NCBI GenBank assembly: GCA_004375715.1
Contig: SOKP01000182.1
Span: forward strand, 3,813-67,812
From: Promethearchaeota archaeon
GTDB lineage: Archaea > Asgardarchaeota > Lokiarchaeia > Sigyniarchaeales > SOKP01
Length of the DNA stretch: 64,000 nt
Direction of reading: 5' to 3'
The notes beneath the pieces were generated by a model. That model did not search any database. It saw nothing but the letters and a program-made list of their open reading frames with translations, and was not told the origin of the DNA. This document shows positions 43,594 to 57,532 of this stretch, in pieces. Made by a program: the position numbers and the translations under genes. Numbering within the stretch: the stretch's first letter is position 1; each line of letters begins with the position of its first letter.

Positions 43594-44145
43594 ATGAGTG
43601 AAACTAACAAAAAATTTAGATTTAAGATTACTGTTATAGGAGATGGTGCAGTAGGTAAGACATCTCTAATCCAAAAGTTCACTAATGATAATTTTAAAGA
43701 AGAATACATCAAAACAATTGGAGCTCAATTTTCCGTATTTGATAGAAAAATCGATGGAGACAAAATAAAGTTATTATTCTGGGACATCGCAGGACAAGAT
43801 TCATTTAATTTCTTACGACCCTCATTTTTTAACAATAGCGTTGCTGCAATAATTGTGTATACTCTTGAAAAAAATGAACATGGGGAAGAAAGTTTTAATC
43901 ATATTCATAACTGGGCTGCTGATATTGAAAAATACTGCGGAGATATTCCTGTGGTAATTTTTGGTAATAAAGTAGATTTGGTAGACGAGAAAAAGATAGA
44001 TACTTCGGCTATCGAAAAAATTGTTGAAGAAAAGAACTACTTGGGACACTTCATTACTTCAGCAAAATCAGGGCAAGGAGTAATTGATGCATTTAATACA
44101 ATTATTGATGAACTATATGTTAAATATAAAGACATACCTGTTTAA
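43594..44145 (+). CDS. Rab/Ras-like small GTPase
   Basis: G1 GDGAVGKTS, G2 region YIKTIG, G3 WDIAGQD, G4 GNKVDL, G5 TSAKSG. 183 aa, with no C-terminal Cys prenylation motif. Confidence 0.9.
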   Translation: MSETNKKFRFKITVIGDGAVGKTSLIQKFTNDNFKEEYIKTIGAQFSVFDRKIDGDKIKLLFWDIAGQDSFNFLRPSFFNNSVAAIIVYTLEKNEHGEESFNHIHNWAADIEKYCGDIPVVIFGNKVDLVDEKKIDTSAIEKIVEEKNYLGHFITSAKSGQGVIDAFNTIIDELYVKYKDIPV

Positions 44146-44165
44146 AAGAACTTTATAAGCCTCAT

Positions 44166-45257
44166 TCATTGTTTAGTTTTTTCCAAATAATCAGGTACGA
44201 AATCAAAAAATTCCTCTACTAACGCTTTCGCCTTTTTAAACCTACTAACTTCATACAATCCACCAAAATGAGACTTGAATTCATCAATAAACTGAGAATT
44301 GAACTTCTTAAGTCCATAGCGCAAAGATTTAGATGATTTTGTAGTAACTAAAACAGAAGCAACTGGGTAGTCCTTATTGTGTTGAATTAAAAGAACTGCC
44401 CGATCCATCTTGATTTCCCGTATTTCTCCTTTCTTTAATAATTCATCTAAAATACTACCCACTGCTTGGAGTACCATAGTAAAGACATTCTCGTCTACAG
44501 CTCTCAATTTTGCCCAATCGTGTTTAAATAATCCAATGCCGGCATTCGTCTCAACAACCAAAAGTCTATAAGCTTTAAAGGGGAGAATATAAATGACTTT
44601 AGGTTCTTTCCATATTACTATTATCGTAAATAACGCTCCTAAACTATGAGTTATAAATCCTAACGAATTGAATATTTTAATAAAAGTTCCTAAAAAGTAC
44701 AGTGTTGCCGTTACAAATGAAAATAGGATACTACCAAACAATAAAAAGCTTACAAGCTGCTTTAATTCACTCGGAGCTCTTTTCCAAGTGAGGTAACTCC
44801 AACTAAAATAGGTCATTACGTAGTAAAAGAGGAAAATAATTTGAAATGTTCGAAGAGTGCCAACAATATGGACGCCATAACCAGGTATAATTTGCATCCC
44901 TCCAGGCATAAAAGTTAAGTATAACAAAGTAATCTCAATTAGAAATAAAATCGTGATCTTAATTGAACTCACGCGTTCTTTTTTAATGAGGTCAATAAAT
45001 ATAAAAAGACAGGGAACACCAATTATTTGTGGTATTATCGCAAGGACCATTAATAGTGGTGAATAATAAAGATGCGAAGCGGCATCTAAAGCCCAAAAAA
45101 AAGATTGCAATAACCAATTTGCTGAAAATAAATACACTAGTCGATTTTTTCTTTTTTTCGCGTAAGAAAATGAAAGCAAAAATCCAATAATGTTTAACAC
45201 GCCTGCTGCTGATGCGGATGATACTAATAAAATATTATCAAAACTAATCATTTTCAC
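44166..45257 (-). CDS. Seven-TM membrane protein with C-terminal longin-like cytoplasmic domain (paralogue 1)
   Basis: Seven hydrophobic segments in aa 1-215. Then LLVVETNAGIGLFKHDW...VFTMVLQAVGSILDELL...IREIKMDRAVLLIQHNKDYPVASVLVTTKSSKSLRYGLKKFNSQFIDEF (beta-beta-alpha-beta-beta-beta-alpha). Confidence 0.6.
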   Translation of the reverse strand: MKMISFDNILLVSSASAAGVLNIIGFLLSFSYAKKRKNRLVYLFSANWLLQSFFWALDAASHLYYSPLLMVLAIIPQIIGVPCLFIFIDLIKKERVSSIKITILFLIEITLLYLTFMPGGMQIIPGYGVHIVGTLRTFQIIFLFYYVMTYFSWSYLTWKRAPSELKQLVSFLLFGSILFSFVTATLYFLGTFIKIFNSLGFITHSLGALFTIIVIWKEPKVIYILPFKAYRLLVVETNAGIGLFKHDWAKLRAVDENVFTMVLQAVGSILDELLKKGEIREIKMDRAVLLIQHNKDYPVASVLVTTKSSKSLRYGLKKFNSQFIDEFKSHFGGLYEVSRFKKAKALVEEFFDFVPDYLEKTKQ

Positions 45258-45279
45258 CTCTTTTCAAATATGATTTTAA

Positions 45280-46362
45280 TTATATTATCTCACTTTTATA
45301 GCTCGGGACAAAATCGAATACCTGTTCAACTACTTTTAAACCCTCGTTGAAATCACTAACTTTTCGTGAGCTTTCTAAAGTTCTTTGAAACCGTCTAACA
45401 AATTCTTCGTTGAATCTTTTTAATCCATATCTCAGTGATTTCGAAGATTTTGAGGCTATTAAAACCGATGCAATTGAGTTCTCTTTATTATGGTTAATAA
45501 GAAGGACTGCTCGATCCATTTGGATTTCTTGGACAACACCTTTTTTTAAAATATCATCTAAAACACTCCCAATAGCTTGGATCATCATAGTAAAGATATT
45601 TTCCTCAACTTCTCCTGCTTTCGCCCAATCGTATTTAAATAAAGCCACGCTTGCTATAGTGTCTACTACTAAAATTCGGTAAGCCTTAAAAGGTAAGATA
45701 TATATAATTCTTGGATCTTTTAAAATAACTAAAATAGTGATAAACGCGCCAATCCCATTTATAAAGAACCCTATGGCGTTAAAGGTTTTTATAAATGACC
45801 CAATTGCATACATTACCCCTGTTACAATTGAAAAAATAGTGCTCCCAAATAATAAATAACTTGTTAAGCGTTTTAAATCCGAAGGAGCCTTACGCCAAGT
45901 ATGGAAACTCCATAAAAAATAAAAAATCATGAAATAAAAGATGTAGATAATCTGCGCTATCCGAAGTACGCCTTTGTTATGAATTCCATATCCAGGAATA
46001 ATCTCCCAATTATCAGGTACATAAAAAGTGATAATAAAAACTAAAGCTTCTATAATCATAAGTATCGAAATTTTGATTGGACTCACATGCTCTTTTCTGC
46101 TAAGTTCTATAAAAATTATAATACAGGGAATTCCTATCAGTTGTGGAACAATCGCTAAGGCCATTAGTGGTATTGAGTAAAAATAATGAGCCGCTGCATC
46201 TATAAACCAAAAAAGAGCATAGCTTAACCACATTGCAGAAAACAAGAAAATAAGCCGATTTTTTCTTCGGAACGCATAAATAAATGTAATTGTACCACCA
46301 ATTGCTACTAATGTCCCCGTTATAGAGGTAGATAACACGAGCAGTAAATTTTCGATACTCAT
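45280..46362 (-). CDS. Seven-TM membrane protein with C-terminal longin-like cytoplasmic domain (paralogue 2)
   Basis: Collinear with 44166-45257 over its full length, with the same 7 TM segments and cytoplasmic domain (ILVVDTIASVALFKYDW...IFTMMIQAIGSVLDDIL...VQEIQMDRAVLLINHNKENSIASVLIASKSSKSLRYGLKRFNEEF). Confidence 0.6.
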   Translation of the reverse strand: MSIENLLLVLSTSITGTLVAIGGTITFIYAFRRKNRLIFLFSAMWLSYALFWFIDAAAHYFYSIPLMALAIVPQLIGIPCIIIFIELSRKEHVSPIKISILMIIEALVFIITFYVPDNWEIIPGYGIHNKGVLRIAQIIYIFYFMIFYFLWSFHTWRKAPSDLKRLTSYLLFGSTIFSIVTGVMYAIGSFIKTFNAIGFFINGIGAFITILVILKDPRIIYILPFKAYRILVVDTIASVALFKYDWAKAGEVEENIFTMMIQAIGSVLDDILKKGVVQEIQMDRAVLLINHNKENSIASVLIASKSSKSLRYGLKRFNEEFVRRFQRTLESSRKVSDFNEGLKVVEQVFDFVPSYKSEII

Positions 46363-49351: not shown

Positions 49352-52300
49352 TTGCATAATTATTTCAATAAATATTCGTATAAAGTCAACAAAGAGAAAA
49401 GGTTTAAAGGAAGAATAGGGTATATTAATAAGAAAAAGTCAGTGAAGTTCATTAGTTTTTTACTTCTTTTCAATATCATTTTGATTTCCTTAATTACCAG
49501 CAGTTTTCTTAATTTTAATAGATTGCTCAACGATTTTAATGATGGAATTGATGATAGTCCATCGGTACCAAATATTTCTTCAAGTGATCCTCCGAATAAA
49601 CACTTTTTTCAAAACTATAAAGTGATAACAATTGATCATAACTTGGTTTCTGGAACAGGGAGTCATAAGAATTTTCCTGTTTTAATTTCTATTTTGGATT
49701 CAGACTTACGTAACGAGGTTCAATCAAACGGGAATGATATTGCTTTTGCTAACGATACGGCTTGGTTAGATCATGAAATTGAACTCTTTGATCAATCATT
49801 TAATGAGACTTATGCTAAATTAGTAGCATGGGTTTGCATTCCATCTTTATCAACTAATACAAACACTCTTATAACAATGTATTATGGTAATTCAACTATG
49901 AGTTCGCAACAAAATCCAACTGGAGTATGGGATAGTAATTATGAAGCTGTATGGCATATGAATCAAGATCCTTCATCTTCTAATATCTTAGATAGTACAT
50001 CTAATAATAATGATTTAAATACTAACGGATTCGCTTCTGATCAACGAATATATAACGGAAAAGTTGGAACAGCAATAACCTTTGATGGAATCAATGATTA
50101 TCTTAATATTAGTTCTTTTTCAGGACCAACAGATGGATTTACTTTTCAATCCTGGTTTAAATTTGATGATGAATATAATGCTAGTCGGAGCGAAATGTAT
50201 CTTTTTAGTGGCAGTACAGCAGGACGCAACAACCCACGAGTGAGATTTTATCCGGGGGGTGGGTATACTGTTGGTTCTGTTGCGACAACAACTGATGAAA
50301 ATGATAGTTGCGATGGTGTTAAAAATGTTTGGGCTGCTGATACTTGGTTCCATTATGCCTTTAGATTCTCAATTCCTATTCAAACCACAACCATTTATAT
50401 CAATAGTACTGTAGATGGTTTTAAGGATGATGCTGATCTTAGTTACCCACACCTTGCGTGGAATAGGTTAACTATAGGATCAAATGATGGGACTAATGTA
50501 TGGGGATCAGGGGCAATCTCAGAGTTTAGAGTCGTAAACATTCCTCTTTCCGTAGACTGGATCAATACAGAATACAATAATCAATATAATCCTTATGCTT
50601 TTTATTCAATTGGAAAAGAATATACCGTATCAGGTATTCCACCTGATGAGCAATATTTCAAATGTTATAAAGAAATAATAATAAACCATACAATGGTAAG
50701 TGGCTCACTTGATCTTATTAACTTTCCTTTGCTGATTTCTATTTTTGATTCAGATTTACGTTATGATGTGCAATTAAATGGAGATGACATCGCCTTTGCT
50801 TACAATGGTGCATGGTTAGATCATGAAATAGAACTCTTTAATCAAACTTTTAATAGCACGGATGCACAATTAATAACCTGGGTTTGCATACCAAGACTTT
50901 CGACATCTTTGGATACAATTATTCGCATGTACTATGGTAATTCCACCATGAGTTCACGAGAAATCCCTACTGAAGTATGGAGTAATAATTATAAAGGCGT
51001 GTGGCATCTCTCAGAATCTACGGGAAGTGCTTTAGATTCCACTTCTTACAGTACAGCAGGGTCAGTTTCAGGTACTGTTTCTCGAGATCCAACTGGAAAA
51101 ATCGATAGCGCTTATAATTTTGGAACTGATGGTCAGATTAATTTTGGTGATCCTCCGGATGGGCATTTTGATATGGGTACAGGAAGCTTCACTATTAGTT
51201 TTTGGATAAATATAGATGCTAGTACAGGAAATTATCAATTACCTTTACATAAAGGCGCTGATGTTGTAAGTGAAGCTGGTTATGATTTTGAAACGGATGT
51301 ATCTGCAACATCACTCACCTTTCACATTTCAGATGGCACAAATCTCGCATCAACATCACCGCTATCTATTATTTTCGACAGTTGGATATATGTTGTTGGA
51401 GTTGTTGATAGAACATTAAATTCAATCCGTCTTTTTCAAGATGGACAGATAGTAGGCTCTGGAACAAGCATTGCTGGTATTGGAAATCTAACTAACAATA
51501 AACCTCTTTTAGCACCTTATTCAACTTATGATCTAGATGGTTTTTTAGATGAAATACGAATTGCCACTACTGCTCATTCAGCAGACTGGATCGCTACTGA
51601 ATATAACAACCAATACAATCCTCTATCTTTTTTGACCATAGGTTCAGAAGAAAAGTTCGATTTTTCACCCCCTACTTATTCAAATCTAACAGAAAGTTCA
51701 GACCCATTAGAATTGGGTGATATAGAAGTTATAACGATCAATGTTTCCGATCCTTCAGGTATTAATCAAGTGAAAATCGAATTCATGAGCTCTAACGATT
51801 CCCTGACCAATATTGGTGGAGATATTTGGCAATATGACGCGTGGATTCCCAACAGTGTTGGTAACCATACATATACAATCTGGATGGAGGATAACTATAA
51901 TAATTGGAATTCTACTATAGGAACTATCGAAGTGATAGATACCACCTCCCCAACTTATTCAGATATCATTGAAAGTGCGGATCCTTTACAACTAGGACAA
52001 AATGTAACAATTAGTATTAAGGCTTACGACTCTCCGGGTTCAGGAGTGAATCAAACTCTTTTAGAATATGGGTCATCAAATCATACGATGATTTTTATAG
52101 ATGGAAACACATGGAGTTGGAATACGTGGAAGCCATTATCCTCAGGAATTCACCCTTATAAAATTTTTATGCAAGATATGGAAAATAACTGGAATATGAC
52201 CAGTGGAACAATAACGGTTGTATCTACGACTGCTCCCGTAATAGAAAATCTTACAAAGAGTGAGGATCCTTTAGAATTAGGAAACAGTATTACTATTACG

Positions 52301-54496
52301 GTTGATGTATTTGATAACGAGACTTTCGTATGGGATGTTTTAATTGAGTTAGATGGAGTAAATCACACGATGACCGCTATTGGTGGATTTACATATGAGT
52401 ATAATTGGACTAGATCCTATGTTGGCACCATTTATTACAGTGTTTATGCAAATGACACGGACAATAACTGGAATTCATATTCTAGTAGTTTTGACATTGT
52501 AGATACGACTCCACCTGCTTTTTCAGACCTTGCTAAAAGTGAAGATTCCTTAGAATTTGGAAATACGGTAATAATATCAGTAAATTCTACTGATTTATCA
52601 GATATTAACCAAGTTAAAATCGAATTCATGGGGTCTAACCATTCCATGACCAATATTAGTGGTTTTACATGGCAATATGACTCTTGGATTCCCAACAGTG
52701 TTGGTAACCATACATATACGATATGGGCAGAAGATAATAATAATAATTGGGGCTTTATTAGTGAATCGTTTTTAGTTCGAGATACAACGCCCCCAATTTA
52801 TTCAGATTTGACCGAAAGCGGTAATCCTGTCGAATTAGGTACTACATTAATTATTTCGATTAATAGTACCGATTTAGCTTACCTCAAAGATGTTTCAATA
52901 GAATATAGAAATTTTAATCATACTATGACAAACATAGGTGACGACATATGGCAGTATAATTCTTGGATGCCAAATTCAATAGGTAATTATACTTACAAAA
53001 TTTACATGACAGATAATAATGATAATTTGAATTATGTTAGCAGTTCGATACAGTTTCAAGATACCATCATCCCCGTCTATTCTAATTTGTTTGAAAGTAC
53101 TGATCCTTTAGAGTTAGGGGATTCTGCGATCATCAGAATTAGAATCTATGACTTCGCAGGTATTAACCAGTCCTTACTAGAATTCGAAGGTTCTAATCAT
53201 TCTATGACAAATATTTATGGAGATACGTGGCAATATGATTTATGGACACCAAATAACTGGATTCTTCATCAATATACAATCCATATGAAAGATAAGAGCG
53301 GTAATTGGAATTTTGTAATAGCTAATATTACTATTCAAGATACAACTCCTCCCCCTTCACCAGTATTGACAAACAGTCCAAGTGGAGATGTCAGTGGTAT
53401 CTTAGTATTTGATTGGTCAGATGGTTCTGATCCTTCAGGCATCTCATATTATTTCTTAATTATTGATAACGAGACCGATCCATTTGCAACTCCAGGATTT
53501 GTATACATCTTTAATATTACGAACTCTGGAATACAAAGCAGTTATTACGAGTTGTCGGAGAATCTTAACGAGGGTACATATTATTATTTTCTTTCTCAAA
53601 TTGATGGAACTGGACATCAGAGCAGTTACACTATGGGAACTTTTACTATAGTTCCTACTAATAACGAACCTGGGAATACTGATTTTTTGATAGTTATCAT
53701 CATTGGAATAATTTTCGCAAGTGTAGCAGGATTGCTTCTTACTGGTATAATTGTAAAAAGAAGAACTAAAAAGGAAGTCCTCCCGCAATTAAAAAAAATT
53801 TCTCTCAAGCCGATAATCCTGCATGTGGACAAAATTTTAAGGTCAAGTTCGTTTCTCAAAATAGATACAGAAAAATTTAAAATCAAAAAAGAAGAGACAG
53901 TAACACTCGGGGAAGAACATAAACACTATGATAAAGAGTTAGAATCCCGTTTAAATGAAATTAAAACCTTAGGAGAGGAATTAATGGATGAAGGCGCTTA
54001 TTTGGAAGCTTTTAAGCAGTTTGAACTCGCGAGAGAAATATTATCGGGATACAATAGAAATGAAGAAGCAGAATTATATTCTGAATTAATTGTCGGTATA
54101 AAAGGTTTAATTGAGGAACGAGAAAGACGATTTGCAATATTGGAACAAGAAAAAGTTCAGGGCAATTCCGTAAGAGTGTATGAATTATACAATGAATTAA
54201 TGGTTATTTCAGAAAAACTTAGAGATATTGATGCTATCCAAATGTATCAATCAGAATTAATGCAATTTTTTCAAGATGATGAAAAGAAAGCCCTTGATCT
54301 GGAGAAGTTAAGGGATCTTCTTGAAAAACGGGCAGATTCCTTATCAAATGACAATCATTTCGAAGAATCCGCTAAAATATATGAAAAATGTGAAAATGTT
54401 TCCCTTTTTCTGGTACAGTTAGGAAAAGAAGAAGAAACTATAAATGTTAAATGTTTCAGGGATAAAAAAGTCGATTCTTTAGAGAAACGTCCTTGA
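49352..54496 (+). CDS. Giant type-I surface protein: signal/anchor, 2x (DUF2341 + LamG), 6 Ig-like repeats, FN3-like domain, TM helix, ~290-aa helical cytoplasmic tail
   Basis: DUF2341 pattern twice (NFPVLISILDSDLR..NGNDIAFA...WLDHEIELF...AWVCIPSLS....ITMYYGNSTMSS). LamG-like cores end ...ADWIATEYNNQYNP. Six ~93-aa repeats start DTTPP.YS.L.ES.DPLELG. TM segment FLIVIIIGIIFASVAGLLLTGIIV followed by KRRTKK. Many N-x-S/T sequons. There is no in-frame ATG near the 5' end, so the start is TTG 49352 or GTG 49442 (the latter gives MKFISFLLLF...). Confidence 0.8.
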   Translation: MHNYFNKYSYKVNKEKRFKGRIGYINKKKSVKFISFLLLFNIILISLITSSFLNFNRLLNDFNDGIDDSPSVPNISSSDPPNKHFFQNYKVITIDHNLVSGTGSHKNFPVLISILDSDLRNEVQSNGNDIAFANDTAWLDHEIELFDQSFNETYAKLVAWVCIPSLSTNTNTLITMYYGNSTMSSQQNPTGVWDSNYEAVWHMNQDPSSSNILDSTSNNNDLNTNGFASDQRIYNGKVGTAITFDGINDYLNISSFSGPTDGFTFQSWFKFDDEYNASRSEMYLFSGSTAGRNNPRVRFYPGGGYTVGSVATTTDENDSCDGVKNVWAADTWFHYAFRFSIPIQTTTIYINSTVDGFKDDADLSYPHLAWNRLTIGSNDGTNVWGSGAISEFRVVNIPLSVDWINTEYNNQYNPYAFYSIGKEYTVSGIPPDEQYFKCYKEIIINHTMVSGSLDLINFPLLISIFDSDLRYDVQLNGDDIAFAYNGAWLDHEIELFNQTFNSTDAQLITWVCIPRLSTSLDTIIRMYYGNSTMSSREIPTEVWSNNYKGVWHLSESTGSALDSTSYSTAGSVSGTVSRDPTGKIDSAYNFGTDGQINFGDPPDGHFDMGTGSFTISFWINIDASTGNYQLPLHKGADVVSEAGYDFETDVSATSLTFHISDGTNLASTSPLSIIFDSWIYVVGVVDRTLNSIRLFQDGQIVGSGTSIAGIGNLTNNKPLLAPYSTYDLDGFLDEIRIATTAHSADWIATEYNNQYNPLSFLTIGSEEKFDFSPPTYSNLTESSDPLELGDIEVITINVSDPSGINQVKIEFMSSNDSLTNIGGDIWQYDAWIPNSVGNHTYTIWMEDNYNNWNSTIGTIEVIDTTSPTYSDIIESADPLQLGQNVTISIKAYDSPGSGVNQTLLEYGSSNHTMIFIDGNTWSWNTWKPLSSGIHPYKIFMQDMENNWNMTSGTITVVSTTAPVIENLTKSEDPLELGNSITITVDVFDNETFVWDVLIELDGVNHTMTAIGGFTYEYNWTRSYVGTIYYSVYANDTDNNWNSYSSSFDIVDTTPPAFSDLAKSEDSLEFGNTVIISVNSTDLSDINQVKIEFMGSNHSMTNISGFTWQYDSWIPNSVGNHTYTIWAEDNNNNWGFISESFLVRDTTPPIYSDLTESGNPVELGTTLIISINSTDLAYLKDVSIEYRNFNHTMTNIGDDIWQYNSWMPNSIGNYTYKIYMTDNNDNLNYVSSSIQFQDTIIPVYSNLFESTDPLELGDSAIIRIRIYDFAGINQSLLEFEGSNHSMTNIYGDTWQYDLWTPNNWILHQYTIHMKDKSGNWNFVIANITIQDTTPPPSPVLTNSPSGDVSGILVFDWSDGSDPSGISYYFLIIDNETDPFATPGFVYIFNITNSGIQSSYYELSENLNEGTYYYFLSQIDGTGHQSSYTMGTFTIVPTNNEPGNTDFLIVIIIGIIFASVAGLLLTGIIVKRRTKKEVLPQLKKISLKPIILHVDKILRSSSFLKIDTEKFKIKKEETVTLGEEHKHYDKELESRLNEIKTLGEELMDEGAYLEAFKQFELAREILSGYNRNEEAELYSELIVGIKGLIEERERRFAILEQEKVQGNSVRVYELYNELMVISEKLRDIDAIQMYQSELMQFFQDDEKKALDLEKLRDLLEKRADSLSNDNHFEESAKIYEKCENVSLFLVQLGKEEETINVKCFRDKKVDSLEKRP
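51658..53340 (+). repeat. Six tandem ~281-nt coding repeats (Ig-like modules) inside the surface protein gene
   Basis: Periodic DTTPPxYSxLxES motif. Units 1 and 4 share a perfect 35-nt match (51842-51876 = 52685-52719). Confidence 0.85.
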
Positions 54497-54571
54497 TAAG
54501 CATTAACTTTAATGTCAAAAAGATGAATATTTAAAAAACCTTAGTCTATGATATATTCAAGGAGATAAATT

Positions 54572-55771
54572 GTGAAAAAAATACCCGGCACATTATATAA
54601 TTTTGGTATTACTAGTTCAAGAGATAATAGACTCAACATAAATATTTGGTATAGAAATGAGTTAGTTTTTGAAAAAACGGGATTATCAGACGGAGAATTA
54701 GTAAATAACATACAATTCTTTTTTGAAAGTAGAAATTTAACGATTCCACGGAATAGACTTGAATGGATCGTTAAGGAGGAATTACTCGAGTTATCCCCGG
54801 CAAGTGATATAACTTTTATTGAAGGAACTGTATCTGAAATCCTCGGACAATTTCAACAGAAGAAAACAGAAGAAATGAAAAAAATAGTTCTAATGGGTCT
54901 AGCAAATGCGGGAAAAACTTGTATCTATGAAAGGGTATTTGAAGGAAAAAAACCATGGGAACTAATGCAATCAACAGCAACTAAAGGAATTGATTATAGA
55001 GAATATAATGTCGGTTCGATAACTAAACCAATGATTTGGGATTTGGGAGGACAACAACAATATCTTGATGAGTATCACGGACCGTTAAGAAGAAATATTT
55101 TTCGAAAGGCTTCTGTATTATTATATGTTATTGATGTGTCTGATGTTGATAGATTTGAAAATACTCGATTGGAGTTCGAATGGAGTGCAAACCAAATTCT
55201 ATCCTCTAACCGAAATGCATCATTAAATATTTTTTTTCATAAGATAGATCTTATTCATGATAGAAATGCATTAATTCCATATTTAAAGAGACTTTTTTCT
55301 CAAAATATCTCTCATAAAATAAACTTTTATGCAACATCTGTTTTTGACGAATCATTATTTACCGCTTGGAGCGGAATAATTCGAGAAATTTCACCTAAAT
55401 CTATATTTATTAATTCGATATTAAAATTGTTGAAAGATCAAGACGGGGTTAATGAGGCACTATTAATTGAAAAAACAAGCGGGCTTGCATGTGGGTCAAC
55501 AATTAATGGCTCTGATGAGGATGTAGTAATTGGAATGATTTCCTTATTAATTGTAACTTGCGATAAGGTAACTAAAAATATGAAATTACAAAGCTTTAAA
55601 GAATTCAGATTGAGAACAACATCTAATTATTTATTACTAACAGATGTTACTGAAGATTTAATGCTTGTTATCCTGTTAAATTCTAAGGTTTTGGATAATG
55701 GAAGATTAAAAGAAATTGAAGAGGTGGGTAAGCAAGTTACAACACAAATTAGAGAATTATGGGATGAGTAG
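54572..55771 (+). CDS. Rag/Gtr1-family GTPase with C-terminal roadblock domain and ~100-aa N-terminal extension
   Basis: G1 GLANAGKT, G3 WDLGGQ, Rag-specific G4 HKID. NIFRKASVLLYVIDV and ATSVFDESLFTAWSGII align by eye to human RagA NIFRNVEVLIYVFDV and TSIWDETLYKAWSSIV. The C-terminal EALLIEKTSGL...NYLLLTDVTEDLMLVILLN is roadblock-like. AAGGAG lies 7 nt before the GTG start. Confidence 0.85.
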   Translation: MKKIPGTLYNFGITSSRDNRLNINIWYRNELVFEKTGLSDGELVNNIQFFFESRNLTIPRNRLEWIVKEELLELSPASDITFIEGTVSEILGQFQQKKTEEMKKIVLMGLANAGKTCIYERVFEGKKPWELMQSTATKGIDYREYNVGSITKPMIWDLGGQQQYLDEYHGPLRRNIFRKASVLLYVIDVSDVDRFENTRLEFEWSANQILSSNRNASLNIFFHKIDLIHDRNALIPYLKRLFSQNISHKINFYATSVFDESLFTAWSGIIREISPKSIFINSILKLLKDQDGVNEALLIEKTSGLACGSTINGSDEDVVIGMISLLIVTCDKVTKNMKLQSFKEFRLRTTSNYLLLTDVTEDLMLVILLNSKVLDNGRLKEIEEVGKQVTTQIRELWDE

Positions 55772-55787
55772 GAGGTGAAATGAATAA

Positions 55788-56660
55788 TTGCCTAGAGGGA
55801 TGTTCTTTTTAATTCATAACGAGATAAAGGGGCCTGAAATTAAAAGTTCATATTATACTAATCCAGTAAATTTAAGTAAAGAATTCATTTCTAAATTATA
55901 CATGTCTCATGCTGGATTTGAATCATCATCTCATATAGAAATAAAATTTGAAGATTATCAAAGTATTTCATGTTTCACAGGAAATTTGGATCGCAGAAGT
56001 CAGAAGGAAGGAATACTCGGCATAATATTTGAGGAAAATGAGGTGTTCGGTAATTTAGATTTGTTTTTACAGCGTAATTTGTATGCAATTGTTGAAAAAC
56101 CTGATAATGAAACAATTGAAGAAATATTCAAGAATAAACTCCTTAATTATCTTGAATTAGATAAGCTTTTTGCAAAAGTAGAAATTGAAGATATATCAGA
56201 AATCTTCCTAATTACGGGTAATCATGAATTTAAATCGTGTCTGCTTAAAATTGGCAATAATCAAACTTCAAATATAGAGATTGGTGAGATGTACCCAAAT
56301 ATTCTTAAACAACAAGAAATTCCGGAATATCAGTATGTAGAATTAATTCCAATTGGTTCCAATAATATGTATCTAATATTAAAAACTGTTTCAGAATCAA
56401 AGAATATTAATAAGATAATTTCAACCTTAAAGCCCTATTTAGAAAAATATCCTTTTTATGCCTTAGAAATTTTAACACTATTTTTGCTTCCTTCTTATGT
56501 CAAACTAATCCCATTGAACTTAAATTTATCCAAAACATTTTCTGATAAAAACAAATCGGTCTTAGAGAGTCTTAAAAAAGCAGAAAATTATGGTGAAGAG
56601 TTTGATAAAATAATCTCGCATCTAGTAAGAGGAGACATATATCTTTTACCCATTTTATGA
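55788..56660 (+). CDS. Hypothetical protein with N-terminal longin-like domain
   Basis: MFFLIHNEIKGPEIKSSYY...SKEFISKLYMSH...HIEIKFEDYQSISCFTG...GILGIIFEENEVFGNLDLFLQRNLYAIV follows a beta-beta-alpha-beta-beta-beta-alpha pattern. GGAGGTGA lies 9 nt before the TTG start, 16 nt after the GTPase stop. Confidence 0.45.
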   Translation: MPRGMFFLIHNEIKGPEIKSSYYTNPVNLSKEFISKLYMSHAGFESSSHIEIKFEDYQSISCFTGNLDRRSQKEGILGIIFEENEVFGNLDLFLQRNLYAIVEKPDNETIEEIFKNKLLNYLELDKLFAKVEIEDISEIFLITGNHEFKSCLLKIGNNQTSNIEIGEMYPNILKQQEIPEYQYVELIPIGSNNMYLILKTVSESKNINKIISTLKPYLEKYPFYALEILTLFLLPSYVKLIPLNLNLSKTFSDKNKSVLESLKKAENYGEEFDKIISHLVRGDIYLLPIL

Positions 56661-56662
56661 AC

Positions 56663-57532
56663 TCAAAACAGATTCATCAATTTTTTTTCTATATCTCTTA
56701 ATAACATATTTCCTATACCGAAATTCACGCGTTGAGAAAAAATCAAAACTAGATTAAATTCTAACCCTTGAATCTTAAAATATTCTGAACAAATTTTCTG
56801 ATGATCCCTTAATTCAAGGAACATTTTTACAGTAATTGGTAATTTGTTTTTCCTCCTAACTTCGAATTCCCTAATTACATTAGATAGGATTTTCTCCGGG
56901 ATTAATGCAAACAACAATTTTCCATTAATGTCAAATAATGCACTACCTAGAATCTCTCTATCATCTACACATCCCCTTAAAAATTCAGTTAATTTCTGAA
57001 ATAAAACTGAGGAAGTTAAACTCTGGTTATCATCAAGTTCGTTAAGATCGTCGTTTTCGTTTTCAGTTTTATAATATTCAAATTTAGGGAATTTTATCAC
57101 CGAAGAACTTATGGATTGGCTTTTCTCCATCTTTTCTAGTTCTTGCTTGAGTTTTACATTTTCTAATCTCAGAAAGCTAATTCGATCTTTTAAACCCCTG
57201 TTTTTTCTCGCCAATTCCTTGATTTCAAACCTGGATAATGCATCACTATTACTATCTGATTTATTTTTTAACGTTGCTTCTAATTCCATGACGAGTTCTT
57301 CAAGATAATCTATTTTTTCGAGATGTATAGATATTTCTTTATCCTTTAACTGGAGTTTTAATTCTAATTCCTTTTTACCATTTTTTAGATTATCTTCTGT
57401 CATCCTAATGTGATCAAAATTCATAAAGCTATTTAGCTGAGTAAATTTATTCGATATGCATTTTTTAAAGAGGTACACATCCTCATGAGCCACTAACCGA
57501 ATTAAAACGGCATTACTTTTATTTTTTTTCAT
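56663..57532 (-). CDS. Coiled-coil protein with C-terminal Roadblock/LC7-like domain
   Basis: Heptad-rich central region (KELELKLQLKDKEISIHLEKIDYLEELVMELEATLK...LRLENVKLKQELEKMEK). The C-terminus (ILGSALFDINGKLLFALIPE...LEFNLVLIFSQRVNFG) is roadblock-like. Confidence 0.55.
   Translation of the reverse strand: MKKNKSNAVLIRLVAHEDVYLFKKCISNKFTQLNSFMNFDHIRMTEDNLKNGKKELELKLQLKDKEISIHLEKIDYLEELVMELEATLKNKSDSNSDALSRFEIKELARKNRGLKDRISFLRLENVKLKQELEKMEKSQSISSSVIKFPKFEYYKTENENDDLNELDDNQSLTSSVLFQKLTEFLRGCVDDREILGSALFDINGKLLFALIPEKILSNVIREFEVRRKNKLPITVKMFLELRDHQKICSEYFKIQGLEFNLVLIFSQRVNFGIGNMLLRDIEKKLMNLF

Follow-up and report, generated by a model that had tools for sequence, protein, structure and literature searches.

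The genome of a Promethearchaeota archaeon (GCA_004375715.1) carries four adjacent genes that bring together a giant surface protein, a GTPase of the Rag/Gtr1 family and two smaller proteins with regulator-like folds. They lie on contig SOKP01000182.1 within a stretch of 64,000 nt, here called the window, and positions are given in its numbering. On the forward strand, a 1714-residue type-I surface protein (REC; 49352–54496), recognizable from its open reading frame (ORF), Pfam matches, hydrophobic segments and glycosylation sequons, is followed after 75 nt by the ORF of a 399-residue GTPase (54572–55771) and, 16 nt further on, by that of a 290-residue orphan protein (P3; 55788–56660). The fourth ORF, encoding 289 residues on the reverse strand (P4; 56663–57532), converges on P3, and the two stop codons are 2 nt apart. 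These ORFs, their gaps and the convergence of P4 had been listed in a first-pass annotation made from the DNA sequence alone, and all of them were confirmed.

Products of the four genes

The GTPase belongs to the Rag/Gtr1 family on all sequence criteria tested, a placement that derives from the ranking of hidden Markov model (HMM) scores. The Pfam model Gtr1_RagA scored 133.1 bits (1.3e-38; cut-off 22), followed by Arf (56.3), Roc (32.5) and Ras (29.8). Pfam and PDB matches define a Rag/Gtr1-type G domain and a C-terminal roadblock domain (54875–55771, forward strand; residues ~102–275 and ~276–399, respectively), and within the latter Robl_LC7 matched residues 282–368 (32.5 bits, 7e-8; cut-off 23). 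The best matches among PDB sequences were Gtr1 (7e-22) and RagA (7e-20), then RagC; the Gtr1/RagA alignment spans residues 99 to ~371 and thus includes the C-terminal roadblock domain, and identity to human RagA is 24% over 296 amino acids. The P-loop GLANAGKT and the motifs DLGGQ, HKID (G4, with HKxD in place of NKxD) and TSVFD are intact and invariant in 21 orthologues, and the segments HKID, NIFRKASVLLYVIDV and TSVFDESLFTAWSGII line up with RagA/Gtr1 motifs. The first-pass annotation had identified a Rag/Gtr1 GTPase from this G4 motif, from RagA-like segments and from the C-terminal roadblock domain, and the Pfam and PDB matches agree with it on each point.

An N-terminal extension of ~100 residues, also noted at that stage, is present and can now be described more precisely. 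It corresponds to residues 1–101 (54572–54874, forward strand) and is conserved among the orthologues, which are 398–401 amino acids long, are 65–98% identical and align from Met1; its invariant residues include P5, G6, T7, Y27, N61, R62 and E84. Because of this constant length, the alignment from Met1 and the invariant residues, the extension is regarded as a conserved domain and not as a spacer. Neither a Pfam family nor a solved PDB structure matched it, profile searches included. The GTPase as a whole is under strong purifying selection at constant length.

In REC, Pfam recognized two Laminin_G_3 (LamG) domains, two DUF2341 domains and one Big_7 domain (residues 1066–1124). Near the N-terminus, a Lys/Arg-rich stretch precedes a hydrophobic anchor or signal (residues 29–55). 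Six tandem Ig-like repeats of ~94 amino acids each (51659–53356, forward strand; residues 770–1335) gave a clean MAFFT alignment of six units, and a single transmembrane helix (53684–53755, forward strand; residues 1445–1468) reaches a Kyte-Doolittle maximum of 3.06 and is followed by KRRTKK. Of the NxS/T sequons, 39 lie in the ectodomain and 1 lies in the tail, a distribution that, together with the hydrophobic segments, fits a type-I topology and a glycosylated surface protein. Pfam, the repeat alignment and the hydrophobicity profile therefore bear out the architecture first described for REC, with its two DUF2341+LamG units, six Ig-like repeats and one transmembrane helix. An FN3-like domain had been proposed as well, and the corresponding residues (1336–1430) are without Pfam support. 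No HATPase or HisKA domain was found in REC by Pfam.

The cytoplasmic tail of REC comprises 246 residues (53756–54493, forward strand; residues 1469–1714), not the ~290 estimated initially. In an alignment of 28 tails, identity is 39–48%, and conservation extends over the transmembrane segment, the juxtamembrane motif KK-I-P-L-K-x-I-x-x-H and the rest of the tail. The full juxtamembrane consensus reads P-x-[RL]-KK-[IV]-[PS]-[LF]-K-x-I-x-x-H and is followed by a helical-looking region with the pattern GEELxxEGAYLEA ... KLRD ... YEKCExIS. The earlier description of the tail as TPR-like could not be substantiated: Pfam gave no match, and a PDB search with the 28-tail profile reached TPR proteins only at E-values of 1.1 and 2.1. 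Judged by these searches, the tail belongs to no known family.

P3 was modeled with AlphaFold2 (AF2) from 41 sequences, with a predicted local distance difference test (pLDDT) score of 83.9 and a predicted template-modeling (pTM) score of 0.86. The model has three parts: residues 1–130 in the longin order ββαβββαα, a second α/β domain (residues 136–233) and a small C-terminal domain (residues 238–288). The elements of the first part are β 2–11, β 15–23, α 31–41, β 60–64, β 76–81, α 91–103 and α 107–130, and the region 45–72 is of low confidence. On this model, P3 is a tandem longin/roadblock-like protein. Its Foldseek list consists almost wholly of roadblock, longin or GAF-type structures, among them the LokiRagO C-terminal domain, Mon1-Ccz1, MglB, LAMTOR and SRX, and the only full-length alignments are to NPRL2 in GATOR1, Mon1-Ccz1 and PelD. 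The NPRL2 chains (9o5d_D, 7t3b_B, 9v0j_A and 9o5a_H), which were assigned from chain lengths and from a check of the human NPRL2 sequence against 6ces_N, matched at E-values of 5e-3 to 6e-2 with a template-modeling score (TM-score) of ~0.25. At the sequence level, P3 matched no Pfam or NCBIfam family, a profile search of PDB sequences returned coiled-coil or chance matches only, and its profile retrieved 33 clusters from 1.84 billion representative proteins, all of its own family, with no bridge to a named one. A mildly hydrophobic stretch at residues 225–243, LEILTLFLLPSYVKLIPLN (Kyte-Doolittle 1.63), runs across a modeled helix and strand and could be either a buried core or a membrane-facing element.

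P4 combines a coiled coil (residues 28–143; 57104–57451, reverse strand), seen in the AF2 model, with a C-terminal roadblock domain (residues 169–288; 56669–57028, reverse strand), seen in the model and by Foldseek, as the first reading of the sequence had predicted. The model, built from 42 sequences, has a pLDDT of 73.7 and shows the order α-ββ-α-βββ-α at residues 176–288. The best Foldseek match was MK-D1 Roadblock3 (9jue; E-value 7.9e-4, target-normalized TM-score 0.62, probability 1.00), and dynein LC7, LAMTOR2/3, MglB and Rag C-terminal domains also matched with probabilities of ~1.0. Pfam PF03259 did not match P4 at an E-value of 1 or below, 0 of 95 homologues carry a precomputed Pfam domain, and a profile search of PDB sequences gave coiled-coil or chance matches only; P4 is a roadblock-fold protein by modeled structure only. 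Translation probably starts at M44 (nt 57403) and leaves the first ~40 residues of the ORF untranslated, since the orthologues begin at this position and the pLDDT of residues 1–41 is below 50. In most P4 orthologues, a ~55-residue zinc-ribbon-like insert with the pattern CPxC...CxH separates the coiled coil from the roadblock domain; it is missing from the window P4 and its closest relatives and has been lost in this lineage. As hhalign detected no match of P3 with P4, of P3 with the GTPase or of P4 with the GTPase, the roadblock/longin relationships among these proteins are visible only at the level of the fold. The proposal of a module with all three fold classes beside a surface receptor is nevertheless supported, with a Rag G domain, roadblock domains in P4 and the GTPase, and a longin-order P3.

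Conservation of the gene set in Asgard genomes

A scan with the GTPase alignment, taking one genome per GTDB species, yielded 41 orthologous loci in addition to paralogues. The orthologous GTPases share 60–77% identity, with two at ~42%. The common gene set was counted by tblastn and then by unsupervised clustering of all ORFs in 42 loci (the 41 and the window), which come from ~36 Asgard metagenome-assembled genomes (MAGs). Four families are common to the loci, namely the GTPase (42), P3 (40), P4 (35) and the receptor (34), and no fifth family was present in more than 6 of the 42. The conserved order is receptor, GTPase and P3, with P4 convergent except in two loci, L016 and L026. The median gap is 19 nt from receptor to GTPase, 15 nt from GTPase to P3 and −4 nt between the 3′ ends of P3 and P4. 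These ends abut or overlap in most of the loci L001–L040, with a 22-nt overlap in ~11, and the tail-to-tail arrangement suggests antisense or termination coupling between the two transcripts. The module occurs twice in each of three MAGs (L001/L014, L017/L033 and L005/L026), and a divergent locus with a GTPase of 47% identity (L093) retains the order receptor, GTPase and P3 with a different ectodomain.

The first-pass annotation had made its proposal depend on the recurrence of this gene order in related Asgard genomes, and a receptor is indeed found upstream of the GTPase in 34 of the 35 loci that have more than 500 nt of upstream sequence. It had also named a G domain outside Rag/Gtr1 and missing partner folds as outcomes that would count against it; the analyses returned none of the three. 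The four genes are thus inherited together with operon-like spacing in otherwise unrelated genomic contexts. Chance adjacency is excluded by the recurrence of the four families in 42 loci, by the unshared flanks and by the contrast between variable ectodomain and constant tail, and the four genes very probably form one functional unit. A receptor that merely neighbors a Rag-like cluster, with no functional coupling, would account for L001, in which GTPase, P3 and P4 occur without it. Such an uncoupled arrangement is scarcely credible in view of the proportion and the median gap given above, the unconserved flanks and the conservation of the tail but not of the ectodomain.

The receptors themselves range from ~960 to 2331 amino acids, and their ectodomains contain three LamG and two DUF2341 domains, one of each, DUF2341 only or Ig repeats only. 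They constitute a receptor family with a diversifying outside and a constant inside. Four loci (L002, L005, L009 and L037) have two receptor genes in tandem ahead of one GTPase-P3-P4 set; the paired receptors have ectodomains of unequal length and similar tails, which are 44–48% identical to the window tail. One switch may therefore be common to several receptors. Such variability could also point to conflict or defense, that is, to a diversifying surface sensor that detects, e.g., viruses or foreign cells and sets off a response through an NTPase switch. Ectodomain architecture does vary strongly between close relatives, receptors are duplicated, and the flanking genes differ among genomes. 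However, PADLOC defense-system models matched 0 of the 4 module proteins, the module has no conserved effector gene such as one for a nuclease or protease, the window genes nearby include no integrase or mobile-element gene, and the GTPase is held at constant length by purifying selection, which together make a defense function highly improbable.

Nearly all carriers are labeled Promethearchaeota. Thor-, Odin-, Hod- and Hermodarchaeota labels, largely from one MAG study, sit on proteins that are 65–77% identical to those of the window, and because of this similarity and common source, breadth across Asgard classes is not claimed. The cultured strains MK-D1 and L. ossiferum did not turn up in the pattern-based scan, which involved no direct search of them. 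Two contigs that carry an orthologous module or a paralogous Asgard-type GTPase, L036 (DATKTP010000069.1) and L065 (DATKTW010000111.1), belong to MAGs named as bacteria, Candidatus Deferrimicrobium and Nanopelagicaceae, an assignment that most likely reflects mis-binning. An exact look-up of the window GTPase sequence gave no record.

The tail-P3 pair and a candidate receptor-coupled switch

A 2025 survey of eukaryotic longins that are GTPase-activating proteins (GAPs) assigns two marks to the catalytic longin domains of FLCN, NPRL2 and SMCR8: a Gly-Pro where the β1-β2 loop ends or β2 starts, and a neighboring arginine finger (PMC12290439). The GP motif and the loop arginine set GAP longins apart from other longins, which lack them, including those that act as guanine nucleotide exchange factors (GEFs). 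Both marks have been noted in some Asgard longins with an unknown GTPase partner, and the authors ask which GTPases partner them (PMC12290439). In P3, G15-P16 (nt 55830–55835) stands at the start of the modeled β2 and is invariant in 41 orthologues, as is R69 (nt 55992–55994); R70 is nearly so. Both arginines fall in the β4-β5 loop, topologically the position of R78 in NPRL2, according to a secondary-structure reading of the sequences in a loop with a pLDDT below 50.

The distribution of these marks follows the GTPase. Among 16 representatives of the P3 family, 12 keep both marks, 4 lack both (P0340, P0341, P0345 and P0356) and none has a single mark. Wherever P3 directly follows a Rag-type GTPase, both are kept: in the window, in 38 GTDB loci and in L039/L041, L091, L093, L094 and L096. 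The mark-less proteins come from four loci with no GTPase between P3 and an upstream tail-bearing protein. The latter is a full receptor in L088 (1–5163), a short protein with a transmembrane segment and tail in L086 (6862–8867) and a soluble tail-like protein in L085 (7153–9935) and L080 (3095–4785). L090 and L097 also have a tail protein followed by a P3 paralogue, and no P4 homologue was detected in the GTPase-less loci. A one-sided Fisher test of the association between marks and GTPase, calculated by hand on representatives that are not phylogenetically independent, gave p ~0.02. As far as sequence can tell, the longin-GAP signature of P3, with its invariant Gly-Pro and Arg, and the confinement of mark-less paralogues to GTPase-less loci are new.

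The most constant genomic partner of the tail is accordingly P3, not the GTPase. Since they remain neighbors in loci that lack the GTPase, tail and P3 appear to be a constant pair and probably touch physically. The GP/Arg site of P3, in turn, appears to be tied to the presence of the GTPase, as would be expected of a GAP. The roles could also be exchanged, with P4 as the GAP, as MglB is for MglA, and P3 as an exchange factor or platform in the manner of Mon1-Ccz1, TRAPP or DENN. Foldseek aligns P3 over ~330 columns to Mon1-Ccz1 (7qla_A and 8jbe_B), and P4, which co-occurs with the GTPase, matches MglB with a probability of 1.0. This assignment is distinctly unlikely, however, as the two marks are those that GEF longins lack (PMC12290439) and the four representatives without them are all from GTPase-less loci.

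With slightly better than even confidence, we regard the locus as a Loki-type Asgard module that couples a surface receptor to a Rag/Gtr1 GTPase switch. In such a module, the receptor tail would dock P3, with which it is paired even in loci without the GTPase, and P3 would act as the GAP through the Gly-Pro at β2 and Arg69, as NPRL2 does on RagA and FLCN on RagC. The roadblock domain of P4 would pair with the C-terminal roadblock domain of the GTPase and so replace the second Rag of the eukaryotic heterodimer, and its coiled coil would oligomerize or scaffold the complex. Binding of a ligand or partner cell by the glycosylated LamG/Ig ectodomain could then alter the access of P3 to the GTPase and hence its nucleotide state. 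The joint assignment of roles to tail, P3 and P4 is tentative and falls somewhat short of even confidence.

Signaling might instead run from the inside outward. The GTPase, P3 and P4 would then constitute a polarity or placement switch resembling MglA/MglB, which positions, clusters or activates an adhesin through its tail, e.g., at protrusions or at contacts with syntrophic partners, and the receptor would relay no outside signal inward. The same synteny can be cited for this arrangement, the roadblock domain of P4 is as close to MglB as to LAMTOR, the variable, repeat-rich and heavily glycosylated ectodomains look adhesin-like, and several receptors can share one GTPase. On the other side, the sequence gives no direction, the GTPase is of the Rag type and not of the MglA type, and no motor or cytoskeletal gene is conserved in the neighborhood. 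We consider an inside-out switch a real alternative of modest probability.

Several observations weigh against the receptor-coupled switch with P3 as its GAP. The sequence features are neutral on the direction of signaling, outside-in or inside-out, and they reveal no effector. P4 is transcribed convergently and hence not together with REC, the GTPase and P3, and the gene set is incomplete in some loci: L026 is without P3, L014, L034 and L036 are without P4, and L001 has no receptor within 10 kb upstream. In L090 and L097, on short contigs of 1.4 and 2.5 kb, P3 keeps the GP motif and Arg yet directly follows a tail protein without a GTPase. The longin-like N-terminus first ascribed to P3 stands in the topology of the AF2 model and is weakly reflected by Foldseek, which gave no match at an E-value of 1e-3 or below and query-normalized TM-scores of 0.2–0.26, and the candidate catalytic arginine, R69, sits in the low-confidence loop mentioned above. 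Furthermore, P3 has no detectable sequence homology to NPRL2: there is no Pfam match, hhalign gives a probability of 0.3%, and NPRL2 reaches −1.2 bits against the P3 alignment profile, a score matched or bettered by 590 of 2000 shuffles. P3 is thus GAP-longin-like by topology and motif and, with homology to NPRL2 undetected, is not called an NPRL2 homologue here. An alignment made by eye between P3 residues 1–40 and NPRL2 residues 5–40 (FF..H...GP.I...P..[IL]S[RK]E[LF]) was discounted after it failed both the hhalign and the HMM-versus-shuffle tests.

Known GTPase systems and other genes of the window

The closest parallel in composition is offered by the eukaryotic Rag-Ragulator/EGO system with its longin regulators GATOR1 (Nprl2/Nprl3) and FLCN-FNIP. 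Both comprise a Rag/Gtr1 GTPase with a C-terminal roadblock domain, a separate roadblock-fold partner and a longin-order protein that, like NPRL2 and FLCN, has Gly-Pro at β2 and an arginine in a loop; both also have a helical-looking, membrane-anchored polypeptide as holder, LAMTOR1/Ego1 in eukaryotes and, by prediction, the receptor tail here. In contrast to the eukaryotic system, the module has one Rag-like gene instead of an A/C-type pair, and its anchor is the tail of a giant type-I envelope protein instead of a lipidated lysosomal protein. Neither P3 nor the tail is detectably homologous in sequence to NPRL2 or LAMTOR1. The GTPase of the module carries an additional N-terminal domain, and P4 includes a coiled coil as well as, in most lineages, a zinc ribbon. 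Eukaryotic Rags are reported to be nested among Asgard RagGtr sequences (Vargova et al.), and Asgard archaea are reported to lack any protein homologous to the mTOR kinase domain (Liu et al., bioRxiv 2020.10.19.343400). Whether the module is a surviving relative of the ancestor of the Rag-Ragulator-GATOR1 system is a further matter, and we think it unlikely. If it were, the Rag machinery would have originated at the surface of the archaeal cell, as a G-protein system coupled to a receptor, and would only later have moved to an internal (lysosomal) membrane, with the receptor tail replaced by a lipidated scaffold such as LAMTOR1.

Bacterial systems provide further points of comparison. The conservons of actinobacteria (CvnA-D) likewise consist of four genes, for a membrane sensor, a small Ras-superfamily GTPase, a roadblock/MglB protein and a fourth regulator (PMC13343842, PMC13621833, PMC8510531). 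Their sensor, however, is histidine-kinase-like with an ATPase domain, whereas REC has neither a kinase nor an ATPase domain; CvnD is described as a small Ras-like GTPase, with no fused roadblock domain reported (PMC13343842, PMC13621833, PMC8510531); and the fourth protein (CvnC-type) is a domain of unknown function and not a tandem longin, P3 having no Pfam match. Conservons are bacterial, and no sequence relationship to the module was detected. The concept of a receptor-coupled GTPase with a roadblock protein therefore has a precedent in bacteria, whereas the composition of the module has none. In Myxococcus, a small GTPase, MglA, is regulated by the roadblock-fold protein MglB, whose structures P4 matches (PMC9481161). 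Unlike the GTPase of the module, MglA belongs to another family and lacks a fused roadblock domain, and the system includes no surface receptor or longin protein (PMC9481161).

Within the Asgard archaea, RagGtr GTPases, roadblock proteins and longins are well documented (Tran et al. 2024; Liu et al., bioRxiv 2020.10.19.343400; Vargova et al.). A conserved neighborhood containing a LAMTOR1-like protein resembles the module in that a small GTPase occurs with a protein of the Roadblock superfamily and with a longin-related regulator; its Rab-like GTPase is not of the Rag family according to the authors, it has no transmembrane receptor, and its third component is a DENN protein (bioRxiv 2020.10.19.343400). 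LokiRagO (8yl2), LokiRagM (8zla) and the longin-GTPase-roadblock architectures of MK-D1 are further cases of Asgard Rag/Gtr-type G domains fused to roadblock domains (PMC10933270). The two Loki proteins are distant paralogues of the module GTPase, with phmmer E-values of 1e-11 and 8e-11 compared with 7e-22 for Gtr1 and 7e-20 for RagA, and their matches reach only a few residues upstream of the G domain. PDB titles state that Loki Rag-like proteins can be tetrameric or monomeric; a literature search for LokiRagO and LokiRagM found nothing. No published description of a receptor-linked Rag module was found in the searchable literature, although the supplementary neighborhood tables of large Asgard surveys might hold one.

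Asgard genomes encode dozens of small GTPases, longins and roadblock proteins, and the pairing of regulator and GTPase is hard to assign, as the GTPase genes of MK-D1 do not as a rule share an operon with roadblock or longin genes (Tran et al. 2024). The module offers a matched set of one Rag-type GTPase, one GP/Arg longin protein and one roadblock protein, with a receptor as membrane anchor, and all four proteins are small enough for expression and testing. Should the proposed couplings be borne out, the module would provide the first case in archaea of a surface receptor linked to a Rag-type switch, and it would open the ancestral function of the Rag/GATOR/Ragulator machinery to direct testing.

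The remaining genes of the window are ordinary chromosomal ones, among them methylmalonyl-CoA mutase, thiolases, a class I aminoacyl-tRNA synthetase, a PAS histidine kinase and subunits of pyruvate:ferredoxin oxidoreductase, and the GC content is even at 30–37%. At 43594–46362, two tandem paralogues of 363 and 360 amino acids, 55% identical and with ~5–8 hydrophobic helices each, converge on the gene of a Ras/Rab-like small GTPase of 183 amino acids (Pfam Ras, 5.6e-42). Both paralogues end in a soluble C-terminal domain of ~130 amino acids, in which a β-β-α-β-β-β-α pattern resembling a longin/roadblock domain was read by eye. This may be a second small GTPase of the window beside membrane proteins with a regulator-like domain. 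Near-identical contigs, located via the Ras-like neighbor in the MAG GCA_030588655.1 (JAUUXF010000013.1) and in the Joint Genome Institute (JGI) metagenome 3300022538, retain the arrangement, and in L001 a homologue of the Ras-like protein directly follows P4.

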